The notes beneath the pieces are model-generated. The model was not told the DNA's origin. It ran no database searches and worked only from the letters and a program-made list of their open reading frames with translations. DNA of 64,000 nt from Escherichia phage SP27. Below, one piece after another: positions 17,972 through 64,000 of the stretch; within the stretch, counting starts at the first letter, position 1; every line of letters starts with the position of its first letter. A program made the translations under genes and the position numbers. Location: sequence record LC494302.1; one strand, 5' to 3'.

Positions 17972-17972
17972 A

Positions 17973-19216: not shown

Positions 19217-19243
19217 GTAGTGAATGAATAATGAGGTGTTTTT

Positions 19244-20052: not shown

Positions 20053-20054
20053 TT

Positions 20055-47563: not shown

Positions 47564-47931
47564 TGGAAATTGCTCTTATTATCTTAACTGCTATGCTGTT
47601 TATTAGTACTGTGGTTATAATTGGTAAATTCTTTTGTGTATCATTTTTAGAAACGGTATACGATGAAATTGCTGATGATTATGAATTACAAGCCGGATTT
47701 TTCATTACGTATTGGCTTAGTTTATTTTGTCTAGTCATTGCTTGGATTTTACATATCTTTAAATGGGGTATGGTAGACGGTGATCCTATTATGGCAATTA
47801 TTGTTCTAGTGTTTGGTATCCTTGGTGGTGCAGTGCATAATCTAATGGTTATCTGGCAAACTGTTCAATATGTTTTGGTTCCCTATTTCGAAAAGATGCA
47901 CAGTACAATTAAAAAACGTAAACGAGGTTAG
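47563..47931 (+). CDS. small multi-pass membrane protein, TM family (member 9)
   Basis: TAATG coupling; basic tail KKRKRG. Confidence 0.65.
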   Translation: MEIALIILTAMLFISTVVIIGKFFCVSFLETVYDEIADDYELQAGFFITYWLSLFCLVIAWILHIFKWGMVDGDPIMAIIVLVFGILGGAVHNLMVIWQTVQYVLVPYFEKMHSTIKKRKRG

Positions 47932-47932
47932 T

Positions 47933-48295
47933 ATGAACGGGATAGAATTATCTTTCGTTGGTCAATTACTAGTAATGGCGTATACATTTATCTTCTCACT
48001 GAATGCATTCGTGTGCATTGGGAAGTACTTCCATAAGCGACCATTATCAAATATATATGATGTAATCCAAAAGAGATATAGTCCAGCATATACTGTGTTG
48101 GGTACAGTATTCAATTTTGGTTTTATTGTATTAATAATTGGACTGTTCACATCCTCTTTGAATACAATAACCTTCGGTCTTATGATATGTTCATTGGTAT
48201 TAGCCGTAATTATATGTTGTTTAGTACTGCACCTTGTGGTACTATTGTATATAAAGATCTCTGAAATCCACCAACGTTTGGGTATGAGGAAATAA
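47933..48295 (+). CDS. small multi-pass membrane protein, TM family (member 10)
   Basis: Trimmed to ATG 47933 behind GAGG. Confidence 0.65.
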   Translation: MNGIELSFVGQLLVMAYTFIFSLNAFVCIGKYFHKRPLSNIYDVIQKRYSPAYTVLGTVFNFGFIVLIIGLFTSSLNTITFGLMICSLVLAVIICCLVLHLVVLLYIKISEIHQRLGMRK

Positions 48296-48296
48296 T

Positions 48297-48668
48297 ATGA
48301 GTTACCGTGAGATATTTTCCATTATTTCAATTATTATGTTCAGTACTGGAACACTGGTATGGTTATTATACTTCTTCTGTATTAATCCAGTGTATAATAT
48401 GTTATGTAATATTAAATCAAGTGCCGGATATATCACTTTTATGGTCTTTATGGGATATTATTGTCTAAGCATTTTAGGTGTTGTTTTGGTTGTTATATTT
48501 GATGTGGGACCAAATAGTGATGGTATGGAAATACATGAATTAATAACCATGTTTGGATGTATGATACCAACAGCACTACTGTTTGTAGCTACTGGTAGTG
48601 GATTGATAAAATTATATAATTATTTAAAATCCATTCATAATTCCATTCATAATAAGCGTATGTCATAA
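48297..48668 (+). CDS. small multi-pass membrane protein, TM family (member 11)
   Basis: 123 aa, AGGAAA SD. Confidence 0.65.
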   Translation: MSYREIFSIISIIMFSTGTLVWLLYFFCINPVYNMLCNIKSSAGYITFMVFMGYYCLSILGVVLVVIFDVGPNSDGMEIHELITMFGCMIPTALLFVATGSGLIKLYNYLKSIHNSIHNKRMS

Positions 48669-48710: not shown

Positions 48711-49373
48711 ATGATGAAATCAAAATTAGGTTTGTTTTATAAAAACTATTTTGTTAAACAACGTAAATTTATAAAAAAATATTTCTCTGGCGAGAAGTCT
48801 AGTCCTATAATCTTTAAAAGACCAAGTTATAATACTTACTTAGCTGGTGCTAAACAGTCTAAGAAATTTATTACTCTTTTACATAAAAACAAAATTAAAG
48901 CTTCTTATGTTGAAACGAGAAGAAACTCATCAATAACTCCTGGTGATTTTATTGAGTACGGATGTTTCAATATTAAGTACAATGATAATACATACTTTAT
49001 GGATATTGATTGTAATACATCCAATCTTTTTAACATTGTAGTAAATCCATTAAAACAATATAATGTTTATGGTGATTCTATTATCAAATTAATCAAAAAC
49101 AAAGATAGCTTTGATTTTGAAATAAATGTTTTAGATGATAATTTTGACGAAGTACCAGTAAACCCTGAAATCTGTGATATTTTAAACAGTTTAAAAGGTA
49201 GTACCTACACTATATCATCTGATTTAATGTTTCAGTACTCATTAATCCATAAAGATATTGAAAAGTATATTGAATGCTCCAGAATTTTGAATTTTCTCTA
49301 TGATGAATTTAAAAAGAGTTCTAAAATAACTGCATACACTTTGTACAATATTCCTAAAATGGTGAATCTTTAA
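48711..49373 (+). CDS. FQxST-motif family protein
   Basis: 220 aa, AAGGAG SD; motif SSDLMFQYSLIHKD; last plus-strand gene. Confidence 0.65.
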   Translation: MMKSKLGLFYKNYFVKQRKFIKKYFSGEKSSPIIFKRPSYNTYLAGAKQSKKFITLLHKNKIKASYVETRRNSSITPGDFIEYGCFNIKYNDNTYFMDIDCNTSNLFNIVVNPLKQYNVYGDSIIKLIKNKDSFDFEINVLDDNFDEVPVNPEICDILNSLKGSTYTISSDLMFQYSLIHKDIEKYIECSRILNFLYDEFKKSSKITAYTLYNIPKMVNL

Positions 49374-49777
49374 CAAATACAGTACTGGCAACTCCACCGT
49401 CTGTAATATATTGTCCAGTACTGTAAATTTGTATACCATCGGTTAAGTAAGTTCTGTATAAAGTTGCTGTAACATATACGTTATTCATATTCATCTCTAT
49501 TGGTAGTACACATTTGGTATAGGCCGACACATCTGTTTGTGTACCTATACCCAATTGACCTGCGTTATCGCCTGTGTTATTACCAGTTGCGTAAACACCC
49601 AATGAAGTTATAATATGATTAGAAAAATATGAATAACCCAAACTCTTGAGATTCTCTACTGTACAACGTACCATCTGACATAAGGGCAAAAACTGTTGTA
49701 TCAGATGAAGCTATTTTTGTTACAGAAGGTTGTATGTTCTGTTTTGATGATGTGATAATTCTTCGAAAGGGTAGCAT
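49354..49777 (-). pseudogene. collapsed RCC1-like paralog (first blade fused out of frame to last blades)
   Basis: ATG 49777 gives MLPFRRIITSS...DGTLYS then stop at 49619; other frame (49354..49689) encodes C-terminal blades GVYATGNNTGDNAGQLGIG. Confidence 0.55.
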
Positions 49778-49849
49778 TGTATCCTCCAAATGTAAATCGT
49801 TATTATATTTAGGACAAAAAAATGCCAGTACAAGGCACTGGCATAAAAT
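49778..49849 (-). promoter_or_regulatory. array cassette, diverged copy
   Basis: Minus strand: GCCAGTGCCTTGTACTGGC, T7, TAAATATAATA, GGAGGA, ATG. Confidence 0.5.
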
Positions 49850-51019
49850 CTAAGCAGAAGGCATATCCTTCATCTTAATAAATGAAAATTGTGTACCAGT
49901 ATTTGTGGTTTGATCAGTAAAATATGAATTACTACCAGCCCAGTACAATTCATTATTAACTATACAATATATAACAGAACTCGAACTCTGTGAATACACA
50001 CGACTTATATTTGATGGTTCTACTCCAGTACTGAACTGAACCGAACCCAACTGTGAACTTGGTATCACATCAGTTGGTCTACCTAAACCATTAACACCAG
50101 CCCCACCACCACATGTATATACCCCAGTACTATCAGTTGATATATTAACATAACCATTTCCAGCATTTTCAAATAGTATTTCACTGGGAACAACACCAAA
50201 TCCTGTAAGATCTATTTTCCTGAATGTAGTATAAACCGTAGAACCGCCAACACCTCTTCCACCATAATCATTAGAACCAGCCATATAGATACTATATCCA
50301 GAACTTCCTAAACATAATAACTGTACGTTGTCATATAATATTTGCATAGATATAACGTTATCAGGAATACTCAATACCGTAAAAGTAGTTAAAGAAGAAC
50401 TTCCAATATTACTACCAACCGATGTTCCACATCTGTAGTACTTACCGCCCTTTATATAATGGAATGATGAACCACCTAATTTATGTGCTCCTATTGCACT
50501 TACCTCAGTATCTATGAGAATGGGAGATACAACTTTGTTATTAACACCTAACTCAGATCTACTGTTCATACCGAACCCATATAAACGACCATCTAACATC
50601 AATATTAGTGTACTACCTGATGTACCCGCTGATGTAAATTCTATATTCTTTATCTGTGACACGTCAATACCTACAAATAATGAAGTTACTTCAGTCCAGT
50701 TAACATATGAACCACTAGCCCCAAAATATCCACCCATGTATAGTCCGGCACAATATAACTTATTATCAACCGTCTTTATTAATGTACCGGATACACACGC
50801 CCAAAAATCATCAACTTCATAGGGTACATGTACCCAACCACCTAATACATCACTATCATTCCCTGTTCCTAATTTGTAGTTCGATCCAGAACCACGCATA
50901 TACATATTCCCTGTACTATAAAGTAATCCGACATGTAATTGACTACCATCCAATTTCTTTATTTCGGGAAGAGTTGGTTTAATATTTCCGTACTTTAACA
51001 TTCTTCCAAAAGGTAACAT
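49850..51019 (-). CDS. RCC1-like repeat protein with MLPF tag
   Basis: Trimmed to MLPFGRMLKYGNIKP; blades with GSNYKLGTGN, GMNSRSELGVNN. Confidence 0.8.
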   Translation of the reverse strand: MLPFGRMLKYGNIKPTLPEIKKLDGSQLHVGLLYSTGNMYMRGSGSNYKLGTGNDSDVLGGWVHVPYEVDDFWACVSGTLIKTVDNKLYCAGLYMGGYFGASGSYVNWTEVTSLFVGIDVSQIKNIEFTSAGTSGSTLILMLDGRLYGFGMNSRSELGVNNKVVSPILIDTEVSAIGAHKLGGSSFHYIKGGKYYRCGTSVGSNIGSSSLTTFTVLSIPDNVISMQILYDNVQLLCLGSSGYSIYMAGSNDYGGRGVGGSTVYTTFRKIDLTGFGVVPSEILFENAGNGYVNISTDSTGVYTCGGGAGVNGLGRPTDVIPSSQLGSVQFSTGVEPSNISRVYSQSSSSVIYCIVNNELYWAGSNSYFTDQTTNTGTQFSFIKMKDMPSA

Positions 51020-51097
51020 AATTCCTCCTTTATTCATTATACTATATTTAATACAAATAAGAAAGCCAGTACAAAGTACTGGCATAGTTTTATAGTA
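51020..51097 (-). promoter_or_regulatory. array cassette (hairpin terminator + late-type promoter + SD)
   Basis: Minus: GCCAGTAC-TTT-GTACTGGC, TTTCTTATTTGTATTAAATATAGTATAATGAATAAAGGAGGAATT-ATG. Confidence 0.7.
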
Positions 51098-52207
51098 TTA
51101 TTTCGGCATTGTAATTGCAGACCATGAGTTCGTGGTAATAGGACCTGGTACATACAAAAAAGAACCACAAGCATAAATTTGATTATTACCATCAAATACT
51201 ATACTAAAATGTGCACATGTGTATAATGATGATTTTTCTGGGTTGTAATTATCTAAAGTTAGTGTATTGGTGAATCTACTCAAACCACCTCCCGAACCAT
51301 TTCTACCAAATTCACCAGTACTGTATATCTTTCCTTCGGTTGTTGCGTACATATTAACATATGAAGTCGCACTTGATTTTGATATTTTATGTATCTTACT
51401 ATCAATAGTAGTGGAGTTAAATGCAAATGGATATACTTGTGTGTTCGTTGTAATACCGTTACCAAGTTGACCAATATACTGCCAACCTGCGTTGTATATA
51501 TTGCTGGCTGAATAAGCAAGAGTACCAGTACTGTTACCACCAAATAGTTTAACACTTGTTAACCTGCTTACTAGTGTAGTATACTGTCCTGGACTTACGC
51601 CAAGTGAACCATACCCACTGCTCCCGCAACCGAGAAGTTCATTATTTGATGTTAATATTAATGTGTTATTCTGTGTACCCAATATATCAAGAACTGTATT
51701 AGCTCCGGTATTAATAACTGAAACAAAAGTACTCTGAGCCGTGGAATACCCACCACCGAGTGAATAGTTACCATTCATGCCTCTACCATAAACAATCGAA
51801 CCACTAGCATCAACGTAGTGCATTGTATCTGCACCAATTGATATCATTTTAATATTAGATATATGTGGAAATGAAGAAGTAACATTCAAACCACCCAACG
51901 GAATCATAGTATTTCCTGTGCCTAATTGTGTGGTAACTCCATGCATTATGAATTCTTCACCCTTGAGATAAAGAATATTGTACGCACCAGCCCATGCATC
52001 AGTAACACCTTCTGAAATTAATATCCAAGTATTTCTTGTTGCTGTATTTTCAACGTTTAACTGCAAATACGTATTAACCCCACAACCATAAAGTGAGCCA
52101 TCGCCATAGAGGACGTACAAATTATCAAGACCGCACAGTACTTTCTTTATCTTTGGAGCTTCAGGTGCAATATTTCCGTACTTAACCATTCTAGCAAAAG
52201 GTAACAT
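51098..52207 (-). CDS. RCC1-like repeat protein with MLPF tag
   Basis: MLPFARMVKYGNIAP; GSSGYGSLGV, IGQLGNGI; SD directly after upstream stop (no cassette). Confidence 0.8.
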   Translation of the reverse strand: MLPFARMVKYGNIAPEAPKIKKVLCGLDNLYVLYGDGSLYGCGVNTYLQLNVENTATRNTWILISEGVTDAWAGAYNILYLKGEEFIMHGVTTQLGTGNTMIPLGGLNVTSSFPHISNIKMISIGADTMHYVDASGSIVYGRGMNGNYSLGGGYSTAQSTFVSVINTGANTVLDILGTQNNTLILTSNNELLGCGSSGYGSLGVSPGQYTTLVSRLTSVKLFGGNSTGTLAYSASNIYNAGWQYIGQLGNGITTNTQVYPFAFNSTTIDSKIHKISKSSATSYVNMYATTEGKIYSTGEFGRNGSGGGLSRFTNTLTLDNYNPEKSSLYTCAHFSIVFDGNNQIYACGSFLYVPGPITTNSWSAITMPK

Positions 52208-52217
52208 AAATTCCTCC

Positions 52218-53397
52218 TTAAATTTGTGGCAATTGGTATTCAGTTAAAGTCCATGTACCAACAACTGTCCCTACTGGAGACATACCAGTGTAGTATAATT
52301 TCCCATTCACATATGCAAATAATGCATTGTCATTCGCAGCAACCAACGATGTTGACGGATCATAAACTACAGAATTTGGAAATTGTGCTTGGACGAAAAT
52401 TGAAGCATTATTAGATGAATTGTTACCAAGCTGTCCATAATTATTATACCCTGTTCCAAAAATACGACTTCCATTTCTATATAATAATCCCCTAGGATTT
52501 TGTGAATATGTTTGTATAAATTCAAAATCGGAAACATTAGTTAATTGTAAATAAGTACTTTGTGGCGTTAAAGATATCTTATTAGTATTAGATAGAACAC
52601 CATTTCCTAATTGTCCGTGAATTTTGTGACCCTACACCATATAGCGGATAAGTATTATCTACATTAAGAACTATACCCAACATATTGTTATATGAAATTA
52701 TATCAACGGGGTACTGGCCTGTAGGAAAACTATACTTTGTCCAACTCGTCAAAGTATCAGTAGCAGAACCAGTTAACAATGTACCAGTACTAGTTTTACC
52801 ACATCGCCATACTGAATTATCATTTTTAATTATCCAAGTCGGACTATTGAAAAATGAACTAACCTTTTTAACATTAATATTAACCTGTGTAAATGATGTA
52901 AGTGTAGATGAACTACTACCCAACTCATAGGTCGAATTATCACCTATTGCGTAAAGAACACTATCATTTGTTAGTAAAAACATATTACGAACATTTGGAT
53001 ATATCTCCTTGATATTATCCACATTAAAACCTGAAAAATAAGACGTACAATCAACAAATGTAGTACTTTGAACTGCACTAGATGTACCAGTCCAAAGGTT
53101 CCAACCTGCATAATAAAATTTATTATCATTGGTCTGAACTAAGCTATATGAAGCATTCCTTGTGCACCAAAAATTTTTCACATTTTGCATTAAGCGAACC
53201 CATTTGGTCTGTGTCGTTGTATTTCCAAGACCGAATATACCAGCATTGTTACCGCCAATACCCCACAAATCACCGTTCTTATACAGAATCATCAATGTGT
53301 TGTTGGTAAAAGCCGATGGTGCTTGCATTTTAATTACACTAGATTCATATATAGGTGCTATATTCCCGTACTTAACCATTCTTGCAAAAGGTAACAT
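52218..53397 (-). pseudogene. RCC1-like paralog interrupted by a +1 frameshift
   Basis: Frame A MLPFARMVKYGNIAP... stops at 52588; +1 frame continues HGQLGNG...GYNNYGQLGNNS... to TAA 52218; shift near A4 run 52622-52625. Confidence 0.6.
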
Positions 53398-53505
53398 AAA
53401 TCCCTCCTTTATTCATTATACTATATTTAATACAAAAAGAAATGCCAGTATCAAGTACTGGCATTATGTTAATTAATAGTGTCTTTCTAAACACATTTCG
53501 TGCCT
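53398..53505 (-). promoter_or_regulatory. array cassette (longer copy)
   Basis: Same hairpin/promoter/SD plus ~37 extra nt after upstream stop. Confidence 0.7.
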
Positions 53506-54681
53506 TTATTCAGGTAGTACCAATTTCTTCATTGTAACTTGTTGTGTACCTGGACTCTGTTCCTGAAACATAGACCCGTTACCACACCAGTACACCTCAT
53601 TAGTCCCCACTAACGCGTATAACACACCAGAACCACCTTGTACTGAAAATGCATTAACATCTGGTGCAACATCCATATCCTCATATTGTACCTGGTGGTA
53701 ATAAGATCTTTCTGATGCAGTAGTAACAGGCCAACCAAGAGGAACACCACTACCACATGTATAAAGTTTACCATTCTGTGTCATTGCCATTATAAAATAA
53801 TTCAAACTGTGATTGTTCATCGACCCAGCATCTGGTATAATACCACTAATTTCGGGAGTAGCACTAAATGGACTCATTGTAACCTTCGTGTCTCCATACC
53901 CAATTCCTAAACAATAATCAGTGTTTATCCCAGCAGTATATACTCTAATATTACCCTTATTCGATGTAAGTACTGAAGTCGTCAAATTAGTACATGAAAT
54001 ACCAATAACTGTTCCAGATATATCAGTACTTACTGTAAATGTGGATAGTTTAGATGCACTTGTACCTAGGTTATAACTTGCGTTATTACCACATCTGTAA
54101 TATTGACCATTTTTAACATAATGTAAAGCACCACCAAAGTGTGTACCAGCAATCATAGTAACACCAGTATCAATCTTAATCGGTGTCGCTTTTGCACCAG
54201 AAACACCCAGTTCACCTCCAGTATTACTACCTATCCCGTATAAATCACCATTGCTTAACATAATTAATAAAGTACCATTTGAAGCGACAGTCTCAGTAGA
54301 AGCTATATCTTGAACTGTAGTAAGGCTTGGTATTGTAGACAATATTGATGTAATATTTGTCCATCCTGGAACAGGCGATTTGACCACACCAAGGTATCCC
54401 ATTTGTCCTGCTAAGTAAAATTCTCCTTCAGTCGTAAGTATAATGGTCCCTGCGGATAAACACCAAACATTAGCAACTTTATATGGACACTGTATCCATC
54501 CATTTTGTAAATACGCAGTACTATCATTTCCTAGCCTATATTGTGCACCATTACCACGTAGATATAAATTGCCACTATCGAACAACATACCCACATGTGT
54601 TGTAGATGTAGCAATCTTCAGTACACCCGAAGGTGCTGGTTTAACATTCCCGTACTTAACCATTCTTGCAAAAGGTAACAT
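53506..54681 (-). CDS. RCC1-like repeat protein with MLPF tag
   Basis: MLPFARMVKYGNVKP; GSNTGGELGVSG. Confidence 0.8.
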   Translation of the reverse strand: MLPFARMVKYGNVKPAPSGVLKIATSTTHVGMLFDSGNLYLRGNGAQYRLGNDSTAYLQNGWIQCPYKVANVWCLSAGTIILTTEGEFYLAGQMGYLGVVKSPVPGWTNITSILSTIPSLTTVQDIASTETVASNGTLLIMLSNGDLYGIGSNTGGELGVSGAKATPIKIDTGVTMIAGTHFGGALHYVKNGQYYRCGNNASYNLGTSASKLSTFTVSTDISGTVIGISCTNLTTSVLTSNKGNIRVYTAGINTDYCLGIGYGDTKVTMSPFSATPEISGIIPDAGSMNNHSLNYFIMAMTQNGKLYTCGSGVPLGWPVTTASERSYYHQVQYEDMDVAPDVNAFSVQGGSGVLYALVGTNEVYWCGNGSMFQEQSPGTQQVTMKKLVLPE

Positions 54682-54753
54682 AAATTCCTCCTTTATTCAT
54701 TATACTATATTTAATACAAAAAGAAATGCCAGTACTTGAGTACTGGCTTTATG
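54682..54753 (-). promoter_or_regulatory. array cassette
   Basis: GCCAGTACT-CA-AGTACTGGC hairpin, conserved promoter/SD block. Confidence 0.7.
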
Positions 54754-55905
54754 TCAATAAACATCCCAAGGTAATGGTGTCTTTCTAAACCCATACCTAG
54801 TTGCGTTCTGCCCATCTCCGGCAATGTATCTACCGGTCCCACACTGATATAATTCAGTACTGCTACATATCGCACCACCAATAGTACCACTACACCACTG
54901 TGTTATATTAGAATATAATATTGGTAAATCACTACATTTGGTATATAATGCAACAGTGGCAGCCCCGCTCGGACCACCAAACACACTTCGGTTCGAACCC
55001 GTGTAATATATGCCATCTGGACTCATAAATGCAGATGTATAAGTTGTACTGCAATCCACTGGACTTCTTATATTATTAAGATCGCTTGGGTATGCTCTAG
55101 CACCATATGTGTATACATTACCAGCAGTAGTAATACCATTACCTAACTGACCATCATTTTGTCCACCACATGTAACCAACGATGCAGTACCGGAAACAAT
55201 TGCAGTAGCATTATACGAAGTACCTATAGCAATAGAAGCACCCGCCCTTTGGGATGGGGTAGGAACTGCGGCTGCGTTCCCCTGACCTAATTCACCATTG
55301 ACATTTCTTCCCCATCCATATACCGAGGTGGTATCTAATTGACATAGTACTGTACCATAACTAAACGTATATCGTATATCTTTCACAGCCGATGGTAAAC
55401 CACTAACTTTAGTTGCAACACTAATAACTCCAGAAACACCAGTAACTCCAGCGTTTGCGTTCATATTACGTCCATATGCGTATAAAGAACCATCAGCAGT
55501 TTTAATATGCATCATGCCATCTGTGCAATATAATGCATCGATGCTATCCACTACAACCGCTCCCATACTAGACGTTATATCGTTCCACCCAAGCGTTGTA
55601 GTACTAGAAATTAAGTTATTTCCGGCGTAAAGTATTCTATTATCATTTGTAACAACTACAGTATAATTGGTAGTAACGCCAATTAATCTAACATTCTCAT
55701 GTATCTTAGACCACATTCCTATTGAATTTGTGTTAGCGTCCAGAAATCCCAACTGACCAGCGGTATTATATCCAATACCCCACACATCACCTTCACTGTC
55801 CAATAACACTTCATGTGAAAAGCCAATCTTAAAATCTTTTATTGTAGGAACTACTGGAACTGGTGCAATATTCCCGTACTTAACCATTCTTCCAAAAGGT
55901 AACAT
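54754..55905 (-). CDS. RCC1-like repeat protein with MLPF tag
   Basis: MLPFGRMVKYGNIAP; GYNTAGQLG, WGRNVNGELGQGN, GQNDGQLGNG. Confidence 0.85.
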   Translation of the reverse strand: MLPFGRMVKYGNIAPVPVVPTIKDFKIGFSHEVLLDSEGDVWGIGYNTAGQLGFLDANTNSIGMWSKIHENVRLIGVTTNYTVVVTNDNRILYAGNNLISSTTTLGWNDITSSMGAVVVDSIDALYCTDGMMHIKTADGSLYAYGRNMNANAGVTGVSGVISVATKVSGLPSAVKDIRYTFSYGTVLCQLDTTSVYGWGRNVNGELGQGNAAAVPTPSQRAGASIAIGTSYNATAIVSGTASLVTCGGQNDGQLGNGITTAGNVYTYGARAYPSDLNNIRSPVDCSTTYTSAFMSPDGIYYTGSNRSVFGGPSGAATVALYTKCSDLPILYSNITQWCSGTIGGAICSSTELYQCGTGRYIAGDGQNATRYGFRKTPLPWDVY

Positions 55906-55977
55906 AATTCCCCTCCTTATTCATTATACTATATTTAATACAAATAAGAAAGCCAGTATCAAGTACTGGCCTATATT
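55906..55977 (-). promoter_or_regulatory. array cassette
   Basis: Conserved hairpin/promoter/SD block. Confidence 0.7.
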
Positions 55978-56715
55978 TTAGACTGAATTGTTAGGATAAT
56001 ATCTCCCACGTCCCCATATTATTCGCACAGCACCACCACCAGCAGCCGTATAAGAAAAATTATCCCATATACTACCACCACCACCATACATCTTACCAGC
56101 ACCACCACTACCAGCACCACCATTATATGAACCATCGTATCTACCGCCAATACCATTAGCACCTTGAACAATGATACCAGTACCACCACCCGTACCAATG
56201 AACGAGGTATTATAGAATGCACCACCACCACCGCCGCCGCCAGCACCATTTTCACCAGTGATTGCATCTCCGTTACCACCTTTACCAGTGTAGCCACCAG
56301 CACCACCACCAATGACTGCACCACCACTTACACCAGCGTTGCCCCCATTACCACCACCATCATTAATAGCGTTAGCAGCTTTCCCACCTAGTCCACCAAC
56401 CCTATATTCACCAGTGAAGCTAACACATAGTTTTTCAGTTCCACGATATAAACCGTTTTCAACTGCTGTAGTAGTGTTGGGATGTGTAAGAGAAACACTT
56501 AAGTACTCACCACTAGTAACCGGAATATTATTACGCCACGATAAGCCGCCACCAGCACCACGTTGACCACCCGGCGAAATAACACATACTGATATTTCGG
56601 TAACGCCAGCAGGAACTGTAAATTGTGTTGTTCCTATTGTCGTGATTAATTGTTCACCATCTGGCTTATATTCAATTTTATTCCCGTACTTTACCATTCT
56701 TCCAAAAGGTAACAT
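55978..56715 (-). CDS. glycine-rich protein carrying the same MLPF tag
   Basis: Trimmed to MLPFGRMVKYGNK; FTVPAGVTEISV..., long GGxGG tracts, ends GGGAVRIIWGRG...; no RCC1 blades. Confidence 0.75.
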   Translation of the reverse strand: MLPFGRMVKYGNKIEYKPDGEQLITTIGTTQFTVPAGVTEISVCVISPGGQRGAGGGLSWRNNIPVTSGEYLSVSLTHPNTTTAVENGLYRGTEKLCVSFTGEYRVGGLGGKAANAINDGGGNGGNAGVSGGAVIGGGAGGYTGKGGNGDAITGENGAGGGGGGGAFYNTSFIGTGGGTGIIVQGANGIGGRYDGSYNGGAGSGGAGKMYGGGGSIWDNFSYTAAGGGAVRIIWGRGRYYPNNSV

Positions 56716-56786
56716 ACTTCCTCCTTTATTCATTATACTATATTTAATACAAATAAGAAAGCCAGTACTCAGTACTGGCTATTATA
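56716..56786 (-). promoter_or_regulatory. array cassette
   Basis: Conserved hairpin/promoter/SD block. Confidence 0.7.
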
Positions 56787-57974
56787 TTATAATTGTCGGG
56801 GTGTATCTAGTACATATCTAGTTGTACTAGGACCACCATCATCATAAGTTCCGGTTGAATATATATTTTTCATATCAGTTAGAAATGTACGATATGAACC
56901 TCTATATATTTTTATTTTATCATACATAGAATATGTTATTTGTGTAGGCATTGGACATGCAGTAAACTTACCAACAGTTGCACTAGTACCAATACCCAAT
57001 GAACCAGCATAACTACTGGCATTTAAACCAGTTGCATATACACCAGTACTCGTAATTAGTATACTAGATTGTGGTGGGTATCCAGTATGAATTGAATACA
57101 AAGTACCGGGTGGTAACGTCGTACTGTTATTTCCTAAAACTCCATTAACAGAGCTAGATGTAGTGTTATTTCCCCATGCCCCATTATTAGCTAACCCACC
57201 GACAAGGAACTGACGTGCTCCTGTATTTGGATTTTCAACTAAAGCACTTACTGCACCAGTTGAGCATCCTGTGTATTGTAACGTTTTTGTGTATGTTGTA
57301 TTTGGTTGATATAAAGTATATTGATTATATGAAGTCCATGTAGTCGCGGAACTTATACCGGATGTAACACCACCAATATATAAATTATTTTGTTTATCAA
57401 ACAACAATACACAGTTATTTGTTGACTGTATTTGTGCAATATCAACATTAGGTGTGACCGCTTTTACAAATGAACCATCGGTTATTTCATAAGTAGTTCC
57501 CGTTCCATCGGCGAATTGTCTAGCACTGTTCCACCCTGTACTCCATATTGTATTATTGTCCATTAAGAAAGTAAACCACGTAGTACCTCCATACATCTGT
57601 TTAATTGAAGTACTTGAACTTTGTGTGTACAAATTTTGAATATATTGGTTATAACTTAAAAACGTAGTAGTACTAGTTGATAAACCAATATGACTACCAT
57701 ATCCACAGTAATAATAATTTGAGTCATTGTCTTTTACTAATAAAGTTCCTTGTGTAAGCCAGCAATCGTTAACGTTTTCTCTAATTAATGTCCATGATTT
57801 TAATGCAGTGTTGTTTCCTCTACCGAATTTCCCAAAACTATTATTCCCACGTGCATATAGTTGACCATCCGTATACAGAACCACAACATCTAAATCAGTT
57901 GGGATTATTTTCTTAATTTGAAGTGGTACTGGGGCAATATTCCCATAATTCATCATTCTTGCAAAAGGTAACAT
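56787..57974 (-). CDS. RCC1-like repeat protein with MLPF tag
   Basis: MLPFARMMNYGNIAP; GNNSFGKFGRGN, GWNSARQF. Confidence 0.8.
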   Translation of the reverse strand: MLPFARMMNYGNIAPVPLQIKKIIPTDLDVVVLYTDGQLYARGNNSFGKFGRGNNTALKSWTLIRENVNDCWLTQGTLLVKDNDSNYYYCGYGSHIGLSTSTTTFLSYNQYIQNLYTQSSSTSIKQMYGGTTWFTFLMDNNTIWSTGWNSARQFADGTGTTYEITDGSFVKAVTPNVDIAQIQSTNNCVLLFDKQNNLYIGGVTSGISSATTWTSYNQYTLYQPNTTYTKTLQYTGCSTGAVSALVENPNTGARQFLVGGLANNGAWGNNTTSSSVNGVLGNNSTTLPPGTLYSIHTGYPPQSSILITSTGVYATGLNASSYAGSLGIGTSATVGKFTACPMPTQITYSMYDKIKIYRGSYRTFLTDMKNIYSTGTYDDGGPSTTRYVLDTPRQL

Positions 57975-58045
57975 AAATTCCTCCTTTATTCATTATACTA
58001 TATTTAATACAAATAAGAAAGCCAGTATCAAGTACTGGCATTAAA
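57975..58045 (-). promoter_or_regulatory. array cassette
   Basis: Conserved hairpin/promoter/SD block. Confidence 0.7.
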
Positions 58046-59194
58046 TCATTGTATAAATGACATATCAACTTCTGTATAACTAAGAATGTTTTGTCCAGCA
58101 ATTCCCCCCATTACTACCATAGCATACCCACAATAATATAATTGCTCAGTGTCCGTAAGTATAAGTGAACCAGATGGAGTGCGTACCAAATTACACGAAC
58201 TATTAAACGAAGTATACGAAGGAGTATATGAGTACTGATTAATATTATTACCAACACCTAATTGACCAAATCCATTCGACCCAGATGCGTATAGAACTTC
58301 ATCACCTTTAGCTATATGTGATGCCATGTTACTAACACACGTATATAGAGTATAAACTCCTGAACTCAATAATGTCGGAGTTTTGTATTGTATATCGGTA
58401 GATGAAGAAGTACCACCTGTGCCAAATTCGTTCCCGTATTGTGCACCGAACTGTTTACCACAAGCGTACAAATTATTATCCGATTTAATAAAAAATGTAC
58501 TTTGATAACTTACATCAAAATCTATAACATCCGAAGCAATCATCGTCACCCCAGTAATAGAAGTTTGATTACCTGTACCTAACTGATAGTAATAGTTAAA
58601 ACCACAACCCCATAAAGTATTATCTTCTTTTAGGTATATGTTACCAACTGCCTTTTTAACCGAAGTTATAGTATCTACCCTTTTGAATGTGTTAAAAGAA
58701 TTAATGTTTGTACCATCACCAAATGATGATAGGTTCGAGTTATTGTTAACTCCACAACAATACAACGTACCATCGTTTGTTATCAAATTCACCTTCATAT
58801 CATTAAAACTACTCATGTATTTTATATCAGAAACATTAATACCACCTGATGTTATCCACGTAGTACAGTCCGTCCACAAAGTTTTTGTATCAGTTACACC
58901 AGTGAATGCCTTCGTGTTACCAGTGATAAAAACTTTTCCAGTACCTTTCTCTTCATACAATTGACAACTACTACTGTTATCTTCCAATAGAACTCGTTTA
59001 ACATTCTCCGCACAAAGAATAAATTTACTCGATGCTACACCTGTACCAGTACCCCAATTCGTCGAAGAAGATGCATACAACTTATTAGTATAAGTATCAT
59101 GAAGATACATAGAATCACTTGAATATATTTTAAAACGCCTATCCTTACCAGGGGCAATATTCCCATAATTCATCATTCTTACAAAAGGTAACAT
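58046..59194 (-). CDS. RCC1-like repeat protein with MLPF tag
   Basis: MLPFVRMMNYGNIAP; GFNYYYQLGTGN, GSNGFGQLGVGN. Confidence 0.8.
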   Translation of the reverse strand: MLPFVRMMNYGNIAPGKDRRFKIYSSDSMYLHDTYTNKLYASSSTNWGTGTGVASSKFILCAENVKRVLLEDNSSSCQLYEEKGTGKVFITGNTKAFTGVTDTKTLWTDCTTWITSGGINVSDIKYMSSFNDMKVNLITNDGTLYCCGVNNNSNLSSFGDGTNINSFNTFKRVDTITSVKKAVGNIYLKEDNTLWGCGFNYYYQLGTGNQTSITGVTMIASDVIDFDVSYQSTFFIKSDNNLYACGKQFGAQYGNEFGTGGTSSSTDIQYKTPTLLSSGVYTLYTCVSNMASHIAKGDEVLYASGSNGFGQLGVGNNINQYSYTPSYTSFNSSCNLVRTPSGSLILTDTEQLYYCGYAMVVMGGIAGQNILSYTEVDMSFIQ

Positions 59195-59265
59195 ATTTCC
59201 CTCCTTTATTCATTATACTATATTTAATACAAATAAGAAAGCCAGTACAGTGTACTGGCATTATA
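59195..59265 (-). promoter_or_regulatory. array cassette
   Basis: Conserved hairpin/promoter/SD block. Confidence 0.7.
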
Positions 59266-60405
59266 TTATTTCCACGGTAGAAGTGAATCAGGAACCCTTG
59301 TTGGTACAGTAGTTGAAGACATTCCAGTAAGATTGGGTACACCACATGTGTATAAATTATTATATTCGTCAACTAACATCGTATAAGAATAGCTCTTACA
59401 AAAACTACTAAGATTACTACCTTCTAATGCAGTAAGATCCATTTCAGCGAATGATGTTATATACATATCAGTTGTACCAATACCACATTGACCATTTGAA
59501 TTAAGGCCACATGAAAATAACTTATTATTATTATTAATTATACAGGATGGTCCGGTAAGGTTTGTCCCAAGCTCACCCACCAACTCCACTTCTCCTTGGA
59601 ATGATAAATTTGGAATTAATGTACTCATTGGGGCTACTGACCTATTTCCTGTACCTGCTTGTCCATAGTCGTTAATAGATGCAACTTTAACATTACCATC
59701 ATTAAGAAATATATAAGAAGTTTCATTTGTATTGACTGCTTTAATTGCATTACTAATCGAAGTATCTTGTGTAAATGTGAGCAAGTTTTGTGTCGTCGTT
59801 CCTGATACAAACGTTCTACCTGCATACCAATATGAACCATCATTTAGTACTAATCCAGTACTATATATTGCACAACCAGCACTGATAACATTTTCTATTG
59901 TACTATAGGTGAATCGTGAAACGCTTGAAGTTGATCCATTCCCAAAAACACCACCAGTACCAGCACCACAGTAGAACCACTTTCCATTTTTTAAAAATAC
60001 ACGCATACACGAAGATATCACAACACTATCAATATCATCTGCACTGACACCGAAATCAGTAAAGTTCTGTGTTATATCAACCCAAACGCCGTTAGTGTTT
60101 GAAGATAGTATTGGAATAACAGTACGTCTACCAGTGTACCAAATAGTACCATCTTTCTTTATAGCAATTGTTCCTTGTACCCCACCCCAATATCGTGTAA
60201 CATTTGAGTTGACAAGAGTCCATTCAGTTGAAGAGTCCAATGAACCATTACCACTTTGTCCATATGCTGAAGAACCAAACCAATATAGATTGCCATTTGT
60301 GTGTAAATAAAATTTGGCATCAGCAGAACATTGTAACCTGTTTTTAGGTAGAATCAGTTCAGGTGCGATATTCCCGTACTTAACCATTCTTGCAAAAGGT
60401 AACAT
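59266..60405 (-). CDS. RCC1-like repeat protein with MLPF tag
   Basis: Tracked ORF reads through the cassette; trimmed to MLPFARMVKYGNIAP at 60405; GLNSNGQCGIGT, NDYGQAGTGN. Confidence 0.8.
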   Translation of the reverse strand: MLPFARMVKYGNIAPELILPKNRLQCSADAKFYLHTNGNLYWFGSSAYGQSGNGSLDSSTEWTLVNSNVTRYWGGVQGTIAIKKDGTIWYTGRRTVIPILSSNTNGVWVDITQNFTDFGVSADDIDSVVISSCMRVFLKNGKWFYCGAGTGGVFGNGSTSSVSRFTYSTIENVISAGCAIYSTGLVLNDGSYWYAGRTFVSGTTTQNLLTFTQDTSISNAIKAVNTNETSYIFLNDGNVKVASINDYGQAGTGNRSVAPMSTLIPNLSFQGEVELVGELGTNLTGPSCIINNNNKLFSCGLNSNGQCGIGTTDMYITSFAEMDLTALEGSNLSSFCKSYSYTMLVDEYNNLYTCGVPNLTGMSSTTVPTRVPDSLLPWK

Positions 60406-60475
60406 ATTCCCTCCTTTATTTGTTATACTATATTTAATACAAATAAGAAAGCCAGTACTCTGTACTGGCATTATG
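60406..60475 (-). promoter_or_regulatory. array cassette
   Basis: Conserved hairpin/promoter/SD block. Confidence 0.7.
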
Positions 60476-61585
60476 TTATTTTGGTAAATCAATTTTAGTA
60501 AAGACTGCAACATCCTCGATTGCACCTGGAATGGCGTAATACGATCCAGTACTATACACATCTCCATTTTTGGTTAATATCGATGTCAAACCATCACTAA
60601 AAAGAACATCCCTAATCTCACTAACTTCAACGGGTAATTGTAAATTGGTAGCACTATATATAGCACCAGTTTGAGAATTGTTTAATCCCAAACCACGGTT
60701 CGCCCCAACACCCTTCTGATATGTACTAGTAATTACCATTTGTGTAGCAGTATTTAAGGCAGGTGAATTCGTCATAAACAACGGAGAACTATTAGGCAAA
60801 GTACTTAAAGGAACTGCACGGAATGTAGTCGTACCTGAACTAAGAAAGTTTGGAGTTTGACCACATACGAAATATGATGTACCATTATAGTAATTTAATG
60901 CATTACCACCAATGGCTGCATCGATTACACCAGAACTACGCAATCCCCAAGTGTTAATTTGTGTTTGGTTCCCCGTACCATGCTGCCCACTACTATTCCA
61001 TCCAGAACTATATAGCTTATTATCTAATGTAAGATACATACTATCATTCGCATTGGTCATTACTTTACGAACGTTCGTAGCACATTGAGTTAATGTGTAA
61101 ATTGATGATGAACCAATACCCAAAGAACCACGATATCCATTATCTCCTGCACCATAGAGTACTGAATTAGTGCTAAGTACAAATATTAAACCATTTGTAC
61201 ATACAATATTAGCAATTTCACTTACTGGTATAGCATTGGTAAACCAATTAGTTCTTTCAACTAATACAGTACTGTAAGAAGTAGTTGTAGAAGATGAGAA
61301 CCAGTACGTTTGACCTGATGTCCATATCGTATTATCATTTTTAATAATAACAAGTGTACGATCACCCACGAAAAAATTAGAAACATCTGCACTTACTAAT
61401 GTCCACGAAGACACCGTGTTGGTATTACCATTTCCAGATTCACCACCTTGATTTCTACCTATGTAATATAAATCATGTGAATCAGTCAATAAGAATTGGC
61501 CTTGGGTAGAAGCACCAACTTTAATTATTTTTTTAGGACCAGGGACAATATTTCCATACATAATCATTCTTCCAAAAGGTAACAT
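60476..61585 (-). CDS. RCC1-like repeat protein with MLPF tag
   Basis: Trimmed to MLPFGRMIMYGNIVP; GRNQGGESGNGN, GWNSSGQHGTGN; SD directly after upstream stop. Confidence 0.8.
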   Translation of the reverse strand: MLPFGRMIMYGNIVPGPKKIIKVGASTQGQFLLTDSHDLYYIGRNQGGESGNGNTNTVSSWTLVSADVSNFFVGDRTLVIIKNDNTIWTSGQTYWFSSSTTTSYSTVLVERTNWFTNAIPVSEIANIVCTNGLIFVLSTNSVLYGAGDNGYRGSLGIGSSSIYTLTQCATNVRKVMTNANDSMYLTLDNKLYSSGWNSSGQHGTGNQTQINTWGLRSSGVIDAAIGGNALNYYNGTSYFVCGQTPNFLSSGTTTFRAVPLSTLPNSSPLFMTNSPALNTATQMVITSTYQKGVGANRGLGLNNSQTGAIYSATNLQLPVEVSEIRDVLFSDGLTSILTKNGDVYSTGSYYAIPGAIEDVAVFTKIDLPK

Positions 61586-61593
61586 ATTCCCTC

Positions 61594-62796
61594 CTATTGT
61601 TGCCATAACTGCGATGGCATTAATGTTAGTGTAGTAATACTATAAGTGCCATCTGGCAATCTACCACCATTTCCATTCCAGCCACCACATGCATATAATT
61701 TATAATCTTTAGTAATTATTATGGTTCTGCTCCAATCTTTAGATGCCATAAGAACATTGTCATAACCACTACTTATTGCACTAAGATTAAAAATATTCCA
61801 AGTTCTAACTAATGTATTAGTTCCATTACCTTCTTGACCATATGAGTTAGCACCACTACTTCTAACATATGGTGCGTATTGTGCCATAGGTGCACCAATT
61901 GATGCATTTCCCATATTACTTGGACAAATAAAAGTACTGTACTTACTTACATCAACCGTGACCGATGTGTTCCTAATTGGTGTTAGCTGATTTACCGATG
62001 TAGTCGTACCATTACCAGCTTGTCCAGAACTGTTAGCCCCGCTATAATATACAGACCCACCAGTAGTAAACCACCAAGTAACATCGTATGTAGTACTAAT
62101 ATGTTCTACATTACTAATCACGAATTTGTTCAAATATACAACAGAACTACCACCACATCCACTTTCACCAAAGTTATCCTTACCACAAAACCATGCATCT
62201 TTATTTGATTTGATATAGTGCGTTCCTTGTAATGAACATGCCATATGTGTAACTTCACCCATATTAGTCATAACTGTGAGTGTAGGGATGGAATTTTTAT
62301 TCCCAGAGCCACATTCACCATTAGTATTTCTTCCACACGCAATTACTCTACCATCGGTTAATAATATTCTAGTACTTTCACCTATATATACACTCTTGAT
62401 CATATTAGCCATAACACCTATTTTATTAAATGCAACAGTAACATCAGTCCATGTTGTCAAATAACCATTAACAGGTGTTGCATCTCCATAATCAGAAAAT
62501 GCACCAACCGACCCAGTGTAGTATATTTTATTATCCAAATCAATCATCAATGAACCTTGAACACCAAGCCAAAAGGCTGCACAGTTCCTTGCAAGTACTG
62601 TAAATGACGAAACTGCTGCTGAATTCCCAAGACCAAATTGATAAAAGTTATTACTACCATAACCATATAAAGTATTAGTTGGGTTATGGAGATACATACA
62701 GTTTGTATAATGTTGTTGTAAAACATCTGAGAACTCTACAGGTTCTGGACCTGGTGCAATATTTGCGTACTTAACCATTCTTCCAAAAGGTAACAT
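61594..62796 (-). CDS. RCC1-like repeat protein with MLPF tag
   Basis: MLPFGRMVKYANIAP; GRNTNGECGSGN, GANSSGQAGNGT, GANSYGQEGNGT. Confidence 0.85.
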   Translation of the reverse strand: MLPFGRMVKYANIAPGPEPVEFSDVLQQHYTNCMYLHNPTNTLYGYGSNNFYQFGLGNSAAVSSFTVLARNCAAFWLGVQGSLMIDLDNKIYYTGSVGAFSDYGDATPVNGYLTTWTDVTVAFNKIGVMANMIKSVYIGESTRILLTDGRVIACGRNTNGECGSGNKNSIPTLTVMTNMGEVTHMACSLQGTHYIKSNKDAWFCGKDNFGESGCGGSSVVYLNKFVISNVEHISTTYDVTWWFTTGGSVYYSGANSSGQAGNGTTTSVNQLTPIRNTSVTVDVSKYSTFICPSNMGNASIGAPMAQYAPYVRSSGANSYGQEGNGTNTLVRTWNIFNLSAISSGYDNVLMASKDWSRTIIITKDYKLYACGGWNGNGGRLPDGTYSITTLTLMPSQLWQQ

Positions 62797-62867
62797 ATTT
62801 CCCTCCTTTATTCATTATACTATATTTAATACAAAAAGAAATGCCAGTATCAAGTACTGGCATAATA
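62797..62867 (-). promoter_or_regulatory. array cassette
   Basis: Conserved hairpin/promoter/SD block. Confidence 0.7.
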
Positions 62868-64000
62868 TTATCGGTTAAATTTAAAATCTGTTATGTGTGT
62901 CCATGTATGATTTAATGGGGTACTCATTGGTGTAAAGCCAGCAGGGTCTGACAAAGCTGTACCACGTGCGTACATAAATTGATTGCCAGTACAATCCATT
63001 ATAGCATAAGAACGTGTTGCTGTGCCACATTTGAACCCAACTGCACTACTTGGGGTCGGTAATACTTCAAATGTAGGTGCATTTGAACTACCACCCCCAT
63101 CTTTTGTTCCAGCTATGTACAGAACTCCATTAGTATCAATGATTAAGTTAGTCCAATATGCTTGTTCTCGACCAGCATAAAAATATGTTAAATCACCGGG
63201 TACAAATGGTAACGTTCCTTTATATATTGTGGTATTAACATTCACTGGTGCACCAGCTACACCCCATGAACTCATATAGTTTCTCCCACTTGCGTAGAAT
63301 GTAGTTCCTTTACCGTAAAGTATTAATGTTGCTTGACTTGTTCGCATTGCATTATATTCAAACTCAGGATCATCAGTAGCGTCCTTAAAAATCTGTGTCC
63401 ATGTTGTTATATTGCCAGTAGTTGTAACACCCATTTGATAATAATAATTATCACCAGTAGCATAGAATTCTTTAGGGCCAGTTTGTACAATTGCATTCCC
63501 ATTAGTTAACCAAAAATCTAATGTATTAGTCTTGATCTTGGTTGGTGTGTAATTCGCCACGGTATTTCCTTTTCCGAAATAACCATTAGCGTTATTTCCA
63601 TGACCCCATAAATCACCATTAGTTGTGCGTAGGAATAATGTACCAGTATTGAATCCAACTTTTTCTATAGTACTTATGTCAATACCAACAGTCGTGTACT
63701 TCGTTGTAAAATCTTGAAAAGTACTCCAATAATTAGATGAACCATTAAACATGGTTTGTCTACCAGTGTACTTCACTTTATTATCGTTAGTGATAAGTAA
63801 TGTCCCCCACACTGACGCGAACATTAACTTAACATTTTCCATAACAAAGTATGGCTTACCGTATGCTGACGCGGTAGTGTTTAAACCTAATAGTTGTCCA
63901 TCATTACTACAACCCCATACTTCGCCGTTATCCAAAAGCATCAACATAGTAGGTTTGCCGGATGATACATCCAAAAAGAAATCTTTTGGTGTTGGTACAC
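62868..64000 (-). CDS. RCC1-like repeat protein, 5' end beyond window
   Basis: Frame stays open to nt 64000; WGCSNDGQLLG, GHGNNANGYFGKGN. Confidence 0.7.
   Translation of the reverse strand, partial: VPTPKDFFLDVSSGKPTMLMLLDNGEVWGCSNDGQLLGLNTTASAYGKPYFVMENVKLMFASVWGTLLITNDNKVKYTGRQTMFNGSSNYWSTFQDFTTKYTTVGIDISTIEKVGFNTGTLFLRTTNGDLWGHGNNANGYFGKGNTVANYTPTKIKTNTLDFWLTNGNAIVQTGPKEFYATGDNYYYQMGVTTTGNITTWTQIFKDATDDPEFEYNAMRTSQATLILYGKGTTFYASGRNYMSSWGVAGAPVNVNTTIYKGTLPFVPGDLTYFYAGREQAYWTNLIIDTNGVLYIAGTKDGGGSSNAPTFEVLPTPSSAVGFKCGTATRSYAIMDCTGNQFMYARGTALSDPAGFTPMSTPLNHTWTHITDFKFNR

Follow-up and report, generated by a model that had tools for sequence, protein, structure and literature searches.

Positions 49354-64000 of a 64,000-nucleotide stretch of Escherichia phage SP27 (sequence record LC494302.1; the whole stretch is hereafter called the window) hold a tandem minus-strand array of genes whose products share one short N-terminal peptide, the tag, ahead of strongly divergent and mostly RCC1-like bodies. 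With a probability that we put at roughly one half, and with the receptor-binding proteins (RBPs) of other phages as a precedent, we read the tag as a short docking, or 'address', peptide that would mount exchangeable binding heads on the exterior of the virion. Listing of the open reading frames (ORFs) and a six-frame motif scan confirmed the original prediction, made from the letters of the window, of such an array of RCC1-like genes with a constant N-terminal tag, and resolved it into 13 genes. Ten of these are intact RCC1-like propeller genes, one of which runs past the window edge; of the other three, one is frameshifted, one has collapsed and one encodes a glycine-rich protein.

The source phage is a member of the genus Asteriusvirus, which comprises Rak2-like jumbo myoviruses, and its backbone is 96-98% identical to those of E9.1, phAPEC6 and 121Q. 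Megablast with positions 49354-64000 matched 36 phage records, all from Escherichia or Salmonella jumbo phages of ~310-386 kb, the top match being vB_EcoM_E9.1 (95.8% identity over 83%), followed by phAPEC6, SHEFM2K, slurp01, PBECO4 and 121Q. The presence of the array in 36 independent phage records makes it a real and recurrent genome feature and excludes the assembly artefact against which the original prediction had cautioned.

The N-terminal tag and the bodies that carry it

In the six-frame scan, the motif LPF.R[MI] occurred 12 times in the 64 kb. Every match was on the minus strand, within 49777-62796, and stood at the opening of a gene (ATGs at 62796, 61585, 60405, 59194, 57974, 56715, 55905, 54681, 53397, 52207, 51019 and 49777). 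Because a strong AGGAGG Shine-Dalgarno (SD) sequence lies 5-8 nt upstream of the methionine of MLPF, this residue was taken as the start in preference to those of the longer ORFs listed. The starts inside the window follow the pattern MLPFxRMxxYGN, the copy at 49777 being decayed; the more detailed expression first proposed, MLPF[AGV]RM[VMIL][KNM]Y[GA]NI.P, held in general, with the exceptions of NVKP at 54681 and NKIE on the glycine-rich gene. In a comparison of nine full-length paralogues, identity averaged 81% in the tag (minimum 67%) and 21% in the body (maximum 33%), in agreement with the proposed constancy of the tag on strongly divergent bodies.

Per-site statistics were drawn from 52 tagged proteins of five phages. 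Pro3 and Phe4 were invariant in 52/52, using four and two codons respectively; Tyr10 and Asn12 were each retained in 47/52, Arg6 in 42/52 and Gly11 in 40/52, with synonymous variation, and position 9 was free (E, K, N, T and others, with E in 14/52). Synonymous codons alternated across genera for Pro (CCT/CCA/CCG/CCC), Phe (TTT/TTC), Tyr (TAT/TAC) and Arg (AGA/AGG), and the DNA upstream of the tag was not conserved between genera. It follows that the peptide, and not the DNA alone, is under selection; on this comparative evidence the tag is kept for its amino-acid sequence.

The tag lies outside the folded part of the proteins. When the 55905 protein was modelled with AlphaFold2 (AF2) from an alignment of 17 paralogues and orthologues (predicted local distance difference test, pLDDT, 89.8; predicted template-modelling score, pTM, 0.87), 27 strands were placed between residues 21 and 376, and residues 1-20 (pLDDT 47-66) were without secondary structure; in the model of the glycine-rich protein (pLDDT 93.3), residues 1-7 fell below 50 and the first strand began at residue 20. 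Modelling thus shows the tag as a flexible, disordered N-terminal extension and, together with the motif scan, upholds the view of it as a real, modular element separate from the fold. The idea of a 'velcro strand', in which the tag would be the closing strand of the propeller, was rejected, the tag being unstructured in both models and also present on non-propeller bodies.

Nine intact genes and the edge-cut gene matched the Pfam RCC1, RCC1_2 or RCC1-like domains: PF00415 and/or PF13540 scored above the gathering threshold in 10/10 propeller proteins scanned, and PF25390 was matched at E-values of 1e-17 to 1e-30, yet below its full-length cut-off of 150 bits. A Foldseek search with the 55905 model gave as best matches in the PDB UVR8, the RCC1-like domains (RLDs) of RPGR and HERC2, and RCC1 itself (E 1e-21 to 1e-14, TM ~0.65-0.76), the propeller being 15-18% identical to RCC1 in the alignment. 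Profiles, model and structural matches together bear out the assignment of the bodies to RCC1-type propellers, and we model them as RCC1-like seven-bladed propellers. The glycine-rich protein (55978-56715) was predicted to adopt a TNF-like plus glycine-rich fold, as found in phage tail-fibre and tail-tip proteins. The propellers have near-neutral isoelectric points (pI 5.1-9.2), ~6% K+R and ~40% S+T+N+G; compared to the other ORFs of the window, the array is depleted in Glu (0.29x), Lys (0.45x), Asp (0.56x) and Arg (0.62x) and enriched in Gly, Thr, Ser and Asn. This composition is of the fibre or adhesin type and not of the DNA-condensing type. Comparing orthologue variability between strand and loop classes was uninformative (1.1 vs 1.6 differences).

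The same tag was found well beyond SP27. A tblastn search with the 22-residue tag consensus returned 60 records, all of Rak2-like jumbo phages (~310-386 kb), with 5-16 tag places per genome in Asteriusvirus, 10-14 in the Salmonella phages Munch, 7t3 and SE_PL, 10 in Klebsiella phage fENko-Kae01, 8 in Erwinia phage Hallingskeid, 5 in CBB and 2 in GAP32; further matches came from Serratia BF, Yersinia fHe-Yen9-04, Erwinia pEa_SNUABM phages and Xanthomonas XbC2. Eight CBB proteins (CBB_144, 536, 537, 548, 549, 550, 551 and 552) begin MLPF[SPAT]R..[EKQ]Y[GA]N, CBB_144 being the product of a solitary tagged gene between nrdD and nrdG; Serratia BF gp371-378 begin MLPFPIIS or MLPFARIVEYGN; EJP2 has 14 tagged genes, and fENko-Kae01 12 plus one GTG-started glycine-rich gene. 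A Pfam scan of 41 tagged proteins identified 26 as RCC1-like, three as Kelch and three as Laminin_G_3, the rest, including the glycine-rich family, being without match. By these assignments, one tag is carried by at least four unrelated folds (RCC1, Kelch, Laminin-G-like and glycine-rich) in at least four Rak2-like genera. A scan of IMG/VR with tag DNA recovered only 121Q itself and no extra diversity, and a phmmer search with one whole propeller sequence recovered few relatives, so far have the paralogues diverged.

Glycine-rich and Laminin-G (LamG)-like bodies also occur in rV5-like and other large myoviruses without the MLPF tag, and the alignments of these homologues begin after residue 17-21. 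Outside the Rak2-like clade the same bodies carry a second N-terminal tag, M-x-E-[LMI]-[LMI]...G: 38/120 metagenomic or phage homologues of the glycine-rich body show this start (background 0.0025 per position), as in MLELLAVSG, MIELLAISG and, in PVP-SE1 gp19, MFEMMLATS, and an rV5-like LamG-like 'virion structural protein', CR3 gp255, starts MNEMLMLGQ. The loci concerned are L006 3998-4840 (PVP-SE1 gp19), L012 2468-3118 (CR3 gp255) and, in EspYZU08, L007 2953-3690 and L013 1387-2109. Smaller groups of homologues start MSFG.PVRNG or MS.RY.GGF. No array of second-tag genes was seen in the first 50 kb of PVP-SE1, where the scan found a single such ORF. In RaK2 itself, ORF526w, 527w, 529w and 530w share the N-terminal peptide M.N.LIQPKGSVSK (L014 12765-35683, ORF525w-534) and ORF531w-534 share MSLSNLS.SN..L(I/L)..G.F; these tailspike and tail-fibre groups fit the 'conserved peptides' modelled previously (PMC6872550). 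The second tag and the smaller groups of homologues suggest lineage-specific address labels on shared bodies.

Virion association, cassettes and shuffling

Published proteomes, the check proposed in the original prediction, find tagged proteins in virions. In phAPEC6, 62 virion proteins were identified by electrospray ionization tandem mass spectrometry (ESI-MS/MS), among them gp003, 005, 006, 007, 009, 010, 549 and 551, listed as 'DNA condensation proteins' with 3-17% coverage (PMC7247149, Table 1); the window genes starting at 55905, 54681, 53397, 52207 and 51019 (F to J) are 99-100% identical to gp005, 006, 007, 009 and 010. CsCl-purified CBB virions yielded 55 proteins, including CBB_144, 536, 537, 548, 549, 551 and 552 (PMC5259590, Table 4), and all seven of these are tagged. 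Tagged proteins are therefore strongly over-represented in purified virions, both in CBB (7/8 vs 55/554, p = 5e-7) and in phAPEC6 (6/8 vs 62/551, p = 4e-5). In addition, the RCC1-like GAP32 gp001, which has a tblastn match to the tag, is a reported structural protein (PMC5259590), and the tagged glycine-rich protein of fENko-Kae01 is annotated as identified by liquid chromatography-tandem mass spectrometry (LC-MS/MS). The 269-residue product of the frameshifted copy, which retains about five of seven blades, corresponds to gp007 and is still found in phAPEC6 virions, suggesting that the N-terminal part is what matters for incorporation.

The phAPEC6 record (MK817115) is under-annotated in the array, at 14668-16694, 19181-20325 and 22683 of the locus. 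A tagged glycine-rich gene of 244 codons is entered as a 303-nt ORF (gp004), and the tagged genes at locus positions 16623, 20252 and 22683 have no coding sequence (CDS) feature; their products were accordingly undetectable in a mass spectrometry (MS) search against a database derived from those annotations.

Nine genes of the array are preceded by a near-identical segment of ~65 nt, and a degenerate tenth copy stands before the collapsed gene at 49777. This cassette comprises, in order, an 8-bp hairpin (GCCAGTA-loop-TACTGGC), a U-run, GTATTAAATATAGTATAATG with the late-promoter-like heptamer TTAAATA, AAAGGAGG and the ATG. In the copy at 55906-55972 (minus strand), AAGGAGG precedes the ATG and the fold is predicted at -18.5 kcal/mol; alignment placed the others, on the same strand, at 62797-62863, 60406-60469, 59195-59259, 57975-58039, 56716-56780, 54682-54747, 53398-53465 and 51020-51083, and the degenerate one at 49778-49844. 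Terminator-like sites numbered 22 against 6.4 +/- 2.7 expected, the hairpin pattern matched 10 times in the window (nine in the array and one at 17946) against 0.08 expected, hairpin plus U-run occurred at 10 intergenic sites, and the 20-mer promoter block matched 9 times against 0.06 expected, being identical in 8 copies. TTAAATA stands 26 nt before the ATG in the cassette and recurs 24 nt ahead of the solitary tagged gene CBB_144. By likeness to ATAAATA, the late motif upstream of CBB and GAP32 structural genes (PMC5259590), it resembles a late-type promoter. The original proposal that each gene lies behind such a promoter thus stands, as a consensus match, for 9-10 of 12 genes and fails for those at 61585 and 52207, which have a Shine-Dalgarno sequence only, follow directly on the upstream coding sequence and probably share a transcript with the gene before them.

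RNA folding of 55906-55950 and its equivalents predicts base pairing between the purine-rich SD region and the U-rich tract that follows the terminator hairpin (z = -2.3); speculatively, read-through transcripts might mask the SD and transcripts from the internal promoter would not. The hairpin match outside the array follows a solitary gene of 384 codons at 17946-19200, on the minus strand within a plus-strand region, which has no tag and no Pfam match. That hairpin belongs to the terminator family of the array with compensatory stem changes (GCCACTA...TAGTGGC), and ATAAATA lies ~32 nt before the ATG.

The arrays of phAPEC6, E9.1, 121Q and the window differ in gene sets and orders, while shared segments are 95-99% identical; the window order A-B-C-D, for instance, corresponds to D'-C'-B-A in phAPEC6, and certain positional alleles are only 52-88% identical between arrays. 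All ends of the megablast blocks against phAPEC6, E9.1 and 121Q fell inside the cassette or the tag (58041; 60362-61598; 51029 joined to 53507, a two-gene indel), and blocks overlapped by 108-120 nt where 121Q has an extra or missing gene. This placement of the breakpoints, seen in genome alignments, shows cassette plus tag to be the recombination substrate, and since the repeat extends into the ORF every exchange regenerates an in-frame tagged gene. Homologous recombination at the repeat of ~110 nt would add, delete and reorder genes and swap heads; an adaptive role of this shuffling is inferred. At consensus level each cassette gene has its own promoter and intrinsic terminator, as morons and mobile cassettes do. 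In T4-type phages, morons and promoter-stem-loop (PeSL) cassettes allow modular shuffling through repeated regulatory segments. The array is like them in these two elements and in the joining of modules by recombination at a repeated segment, and differs in that its promoter looks late, not early, and its repeat reaches into the coding sequence as the tag.

Location on the particle

In the mechanism that we propose, the array is a row of self-contained late-gene modules of a Rak2-like jumbo coliphage. In most modules a terminator hairpin and a promoter resembling the T4 late type are followed by a strong Shine-Dalgarno sequence and by a gene whose product joins an N-terminal peptide of 12-15 residues, M-[LI]-P-F-x-R-[MIL]-h-x-Y-[GA]-N(-I-A-P), to a binding body that is variable and all-beta. 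The tag would insert non-covalently into one common class of exterior site (a fibre, a 'hair' or a branching scaffold), paralogues would compete for the same sites to give each virion a mixed set of heads, and lectin-like or protein-binding heads would aid adsorption to varied cell-surface or environmental ligands. An exterior location is favoured because the bodies other than the glycine-rich one (RCC1-like, Kelch, ConA/LamG-like) are binding platforms of adhesin-like composition, and because secondary RBPs that dock through a 'conserved peptide' are built in the same way (PMC6872550, PMC13352976).

Conserved N-terminal peptides of 7-11 residues occur on the secondary RBPs of K1E, K1-5, SP6 and KP34-like phages and differ between phage groups (PMC6872550), and docking peptides of this kind have been validated experimentally (PMC13352976). 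The originally proposed logic of a conserved docking end carrying a variable binding domain therefore has an established counterpart. In the branched RBP systems (Klebsiella KP32, KP34, Menlow and PhiK64-1; K1E, K1-5 and SP6), too, a short lineage-specific N-terminal peptide precedes divergent bodies, the peptide being the attachment element, the body providing specificity and modules being horizontally exchanged (PMC6872550); the SP27 array shares with them a short N-terminal peptide common to differing bodies and the status of the tagged proteins as virion components. Unlike them, it has monomer-sized propeller, lectin-like and glycine-rich bodies instead of trimeric beta-helix depolymerases, up to ~16 copies per genome, mostly with a terminator/promoter cassette of their own, no T4gp10-like branching partner among the window proteins, and at most a putative place on the tail.

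Both phAPEC6 and CBB bear unexplained hair-like appendages on tail and capsid (PMC7247149; PMC5259590). The authors of the CBB study expected hair proteins among the CBB proteins absent from GAP32 (PMC5259590), and 5/6 of the MS-detected CBB proteins missing from GAP32 are tagged. Several points weigh against an exterior docking role. The propellers, at ~40 kDa, are themselves too small for the ~119-nm hairs of CBB and phAPEC6, which the tagged proteins could decorate along the shaft. MS reports presence in particles, not position; the phAPEC6 coverage is low (3-17%, 1-5 peptides), so that copy numbers would be small and co-purification is not fully excluded, and the fENko-Kae01 proteome came from ultrafiltered, not gradient-purified, phage. 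No candidate docking partner was found in the 64-kb window, and the MLPF tag is not used by RaK2, the member of the clade whose fibre apparatus has been studied best. Moreover, RCC1 and Kelch propellers are typical intracellular protein-interaction platforms, and a role as injected effectors fits equally well.

A wider and more tentative version of the docking reading is that short N-terminal 'address labels', differing from lineage to lineage, may serve large myoviruses as a general plug-in system by which any small binding domain, once labelled, is mounted on the particle. The Rak2-like label would be MLPFxRhhxYGN, with the labelled heads forming the 'hairy' decoration or an accessory adhesin layer; rV5-like phages would mount the same bodies with another label (M-x-E-h-h...G); and label and cassette, as one repeat, would constitute a natural cassette-exchange, or display, platform on a 350-kb phage.

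The main rival reading, which we consider unlikely on balance, is that the tag is instead a capsid-targeting sequence (CTS) of the T4 kind. It would direct the proteins to the prohead core, so that they are packed in the head (possibly as the 'inner body' of phAPEC6) and enter the cell together with the DNA; there, as an arsenal that diversifies, they would bind proteins and so inhibit host defences. In T4, the internal proteins (IPs) I-III and Alt carry a CTS of ~10 residues at the extreme N-terminus, and T4-type IP loci are hyperplastic, with a constant peptide of ~10-15 residues on hypervariable bodies. The array likewise has a shared extreme N-terminal peptide on divergent particle proteins in a plastic locus, and to inhibit or adapt other proteins by binding them is a classic role of RCC1, Kelch and BLIP-II-type propellers. 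Rak2-like phages are distant relatives of T4 with a gp21-like prohead protease and a scaffold (gp227c and gp226c; PMC7247149, Table 1), the tagged proteins are present in virions at low abundance (PMC7247149), and phAPEC6 particles contain an inner body. What speaks against a CTS is that the tag is followed by no consistent (L/I)-x-E prohead-protease site: the tags of the window and of Asteriusvirus lack Glu, position 9 is Glu in just 14/52, and many tagged proteins have no Glu in the first 30 residues. The bodies, at 25-42 kDa, are large, near-neutral and rich in Ser, Thr, Asn and Gly rather than small and basic; one of them folds like external tail-fibre and tail-tip proteins of known structure, and Laminin-G-like bodies are typical surface lectin modules.

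There is little to recommend the view that the tag has no address function, its constancy being due to concerted evolution by gene conversion between cassettes together with a constraint on translation initiation, and the bodies conferring virion association. Within the window, TTA CCT TTT ... AGA ATG is invariant in 11 copies, cassette and first seven codons are near-identical, the promoter 20-mer is shared without change by 8 copies, and recombination does occur in the cassette/tag segment. Across genera, by contrast, the peptide is conserved with synonymous change and the upstream DNA is not. The genes at 61585 and 52207 keep the tag without the cassette, CBB_144 is tagged yet solitary between nrdD and nrdG, four unrelated body folds and a truncated propeller all reach the virion, and the tag has decayed in the dead copy at 49777.

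Finally, the annotation as RCC1-type 'DNA condensation proteins' organizing the packaged 350-kb genome, for which stand the Pfam and PHROG names, the presence of the proteins in virions and a published speculation that RCC1-like proteins might build an ordered DNA structure (PMC7247149), is unsupported by our measurements and very improbable: the name is transferred from eukaryotic RCC1, the depletion of Lys (0.45x) and Arg (0.62x) at pI 5.1-9.2 argues against DNA binding, Kelch, lectin-like and fibre-like bodies bear this tag as well, and the free gain, loss and replacement of copies between near-identical phages and the absence of RCC1 copies from CBB (PMC5259590) are hard to square with a core packaging role.

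The array gene by gene and its wider meaning

All genes of the array lie on the minus strand and are described here from its upstream end. The edge-cut RCC1-like propeller gene (62868-64000; Pfam RCC1 and RCC1-like domain) starts beyond 64000 and is 100% identical to its E9.1 orthologue, which carries the tag and whose start is MLPFGRMLNYGNEAP. It is followed by tagged propeller genes, assigned by ORF listing, Pfam and motif scan, at 61594-62796 (400 residues, MLPFGRMVKYANIAP, with a cassette upstream), 60476-61585 (369 residues, MLPFGRMIMYGNIVP, without a cassette of its own and with its SD inside the end of the upstream gene), 59266-60405 (379 residues, also placed by cassette alignment), 58046-59194 (382 residues) and 56787-57974 (395 residues). 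The gene at 58046-59194 has no counterpart at this place in 121Q, and the blocks on its two sides share an overlap of ~120 nt there, at the cassette. The tagged glycine-rich gene (55978-56715; 245 residues, MLPFGRMVKYGNKIE) encodes a non-propeller without Pfam match. Next come propeller genes at 54754-55905 (383 residues) and 53506-54681 (391 residues), 100% identical to phAPEC6 gp005 and gp006 respectively.

The frameshifted tagged propeller (52218-53397) yields the 269-residue product (53397-52588) that equals gp007; a 1-nt insertion lies near 52618, and beyond it the +1 frame stays open for 137 codons, up to 52220-52218. The frameshift is common to phAPEC6 and 121Q, and the genome in which the 137 codons have stayed open is AT-rich; the frameshift is either recent, or tolerated or bypassed, and no obvious slippery site was seen in 52218-52634. 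Beyond it lie the propeller genes at 51098-52207 (369 residues, SD only, without cassette; 100% identical to phAPEC6 gp009) and 49850-51019 (389 residues, 99% identical to gp010). The array ends in the collapsed pseudogene at 49354-49777, identified by ORF and motif scan and by comparison with E9.1, which has the decayed tag MLPFRRIITSS and is ~0.7 kb shorter than its E9.1 counterpart, itself also broken.

Positions 1-49000 of the window are a plus-strand region in which small ORFs are numerous and which also contains six tRNA genes and the genes of a sigma-70-family protein and an AAA ATPase; they resemble the putative early region adjoining the tagged gene clusters in phage CBB (PMC5259590); the GC skew changes sign at ~49-50 kb, in agreement with the strand switch. 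The tRNA genes (8200-12642, plus strand) are Gly(TCC), Ser(TGA), Ser(ACT), Met, Asn(GTT) and Thr(TGT); Met aside, they serve amino acids that are among the five with the strongest enrichment in the array, four of which are thus covered (G 2.8x, T 1.8x, S 1.5x, N 1.3x); Trp, third in enrichment (1.64x vs the other window ORFs), has no tRNA. The sigma-70-family gene (23924-24889, plus strand), with regions 2, 3 and 4, is probably the phage-encoded sigma factor reported for phAPEC6 and CBB. Two neighbouring small ORFs (141 and 123 residues; 47870-48668, plus strand) resemble multi-pass membrane proteins and converge on the array; in CBB, small 'putative membrane proteins' (CBB_539-547) lie between the two tagged-gene clusters. 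The flanking gene at 48711-49373 is Asteriusvirus-specific. Positional homology between the array and the RaK2 tailspike island was rejected on account of this flank and of the other N-terminal peptides of the RaK2 spikes. Beyond the array in E9.1 (L002 23219-28010), ~22 tandem plus-strand ORFs of ~60-70 residues each (CDS0639-0660) begin right after the divergent array end and may be another paralogous mini-gene array.

Paralogues of these genes have been published under the names 'RCC1-like' or 'DNA condensation protein' in 121Q, PBECO4 and phAPEC6 and as GAP32 gp001 (PMC5259590, PMC7247149), and the 99-100% identity with phAPEC6 gp005, 006, 007, 009 and 010 makes them the same genes. The original claim that nothing like the array had been described was thus too strong, the arrays of 121Q, PBECO4 and phAPEC6 and their virion association being on record. 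Those two reports note copy number and MS detection and propose a role in DNA organization; they do not report the shared peptide, its non-RCC1 carriers or the cassette; the CBB paralogue table links only 536/537 and 549/553 (PMC5259590), and later genome papers label array genes as chromosome-condensation regulators. No description of the shared N-terminal peptide was found in literature of incomplete coverage, so that priority is not certain; a prasinovirus paper that mentions 'RCC1' proved irrelevant, since it uses RCC as the strain prefix of the Roscoff Culture Collection. The shared peptide and its spread over unrelated folds thus appear to be new, the array and its MS detection being known.

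For dozens of jumbo-phage records, a misleading annotation may in this way be replaced by a testable role, that of modular, tag-addressed virion proteins. The 12-residue tag provides a handle for locating the hairy appendages of phAPEC6 and CBB together with their docking partner. If it is sufficient for incorporation, it would be ready-made for use in display or engineering of jumbo phages, and cassette exchange would explain how these phages vary their surface or host range. That the principle may be wider is hinted at by the parallel tag of rV5-like phages.

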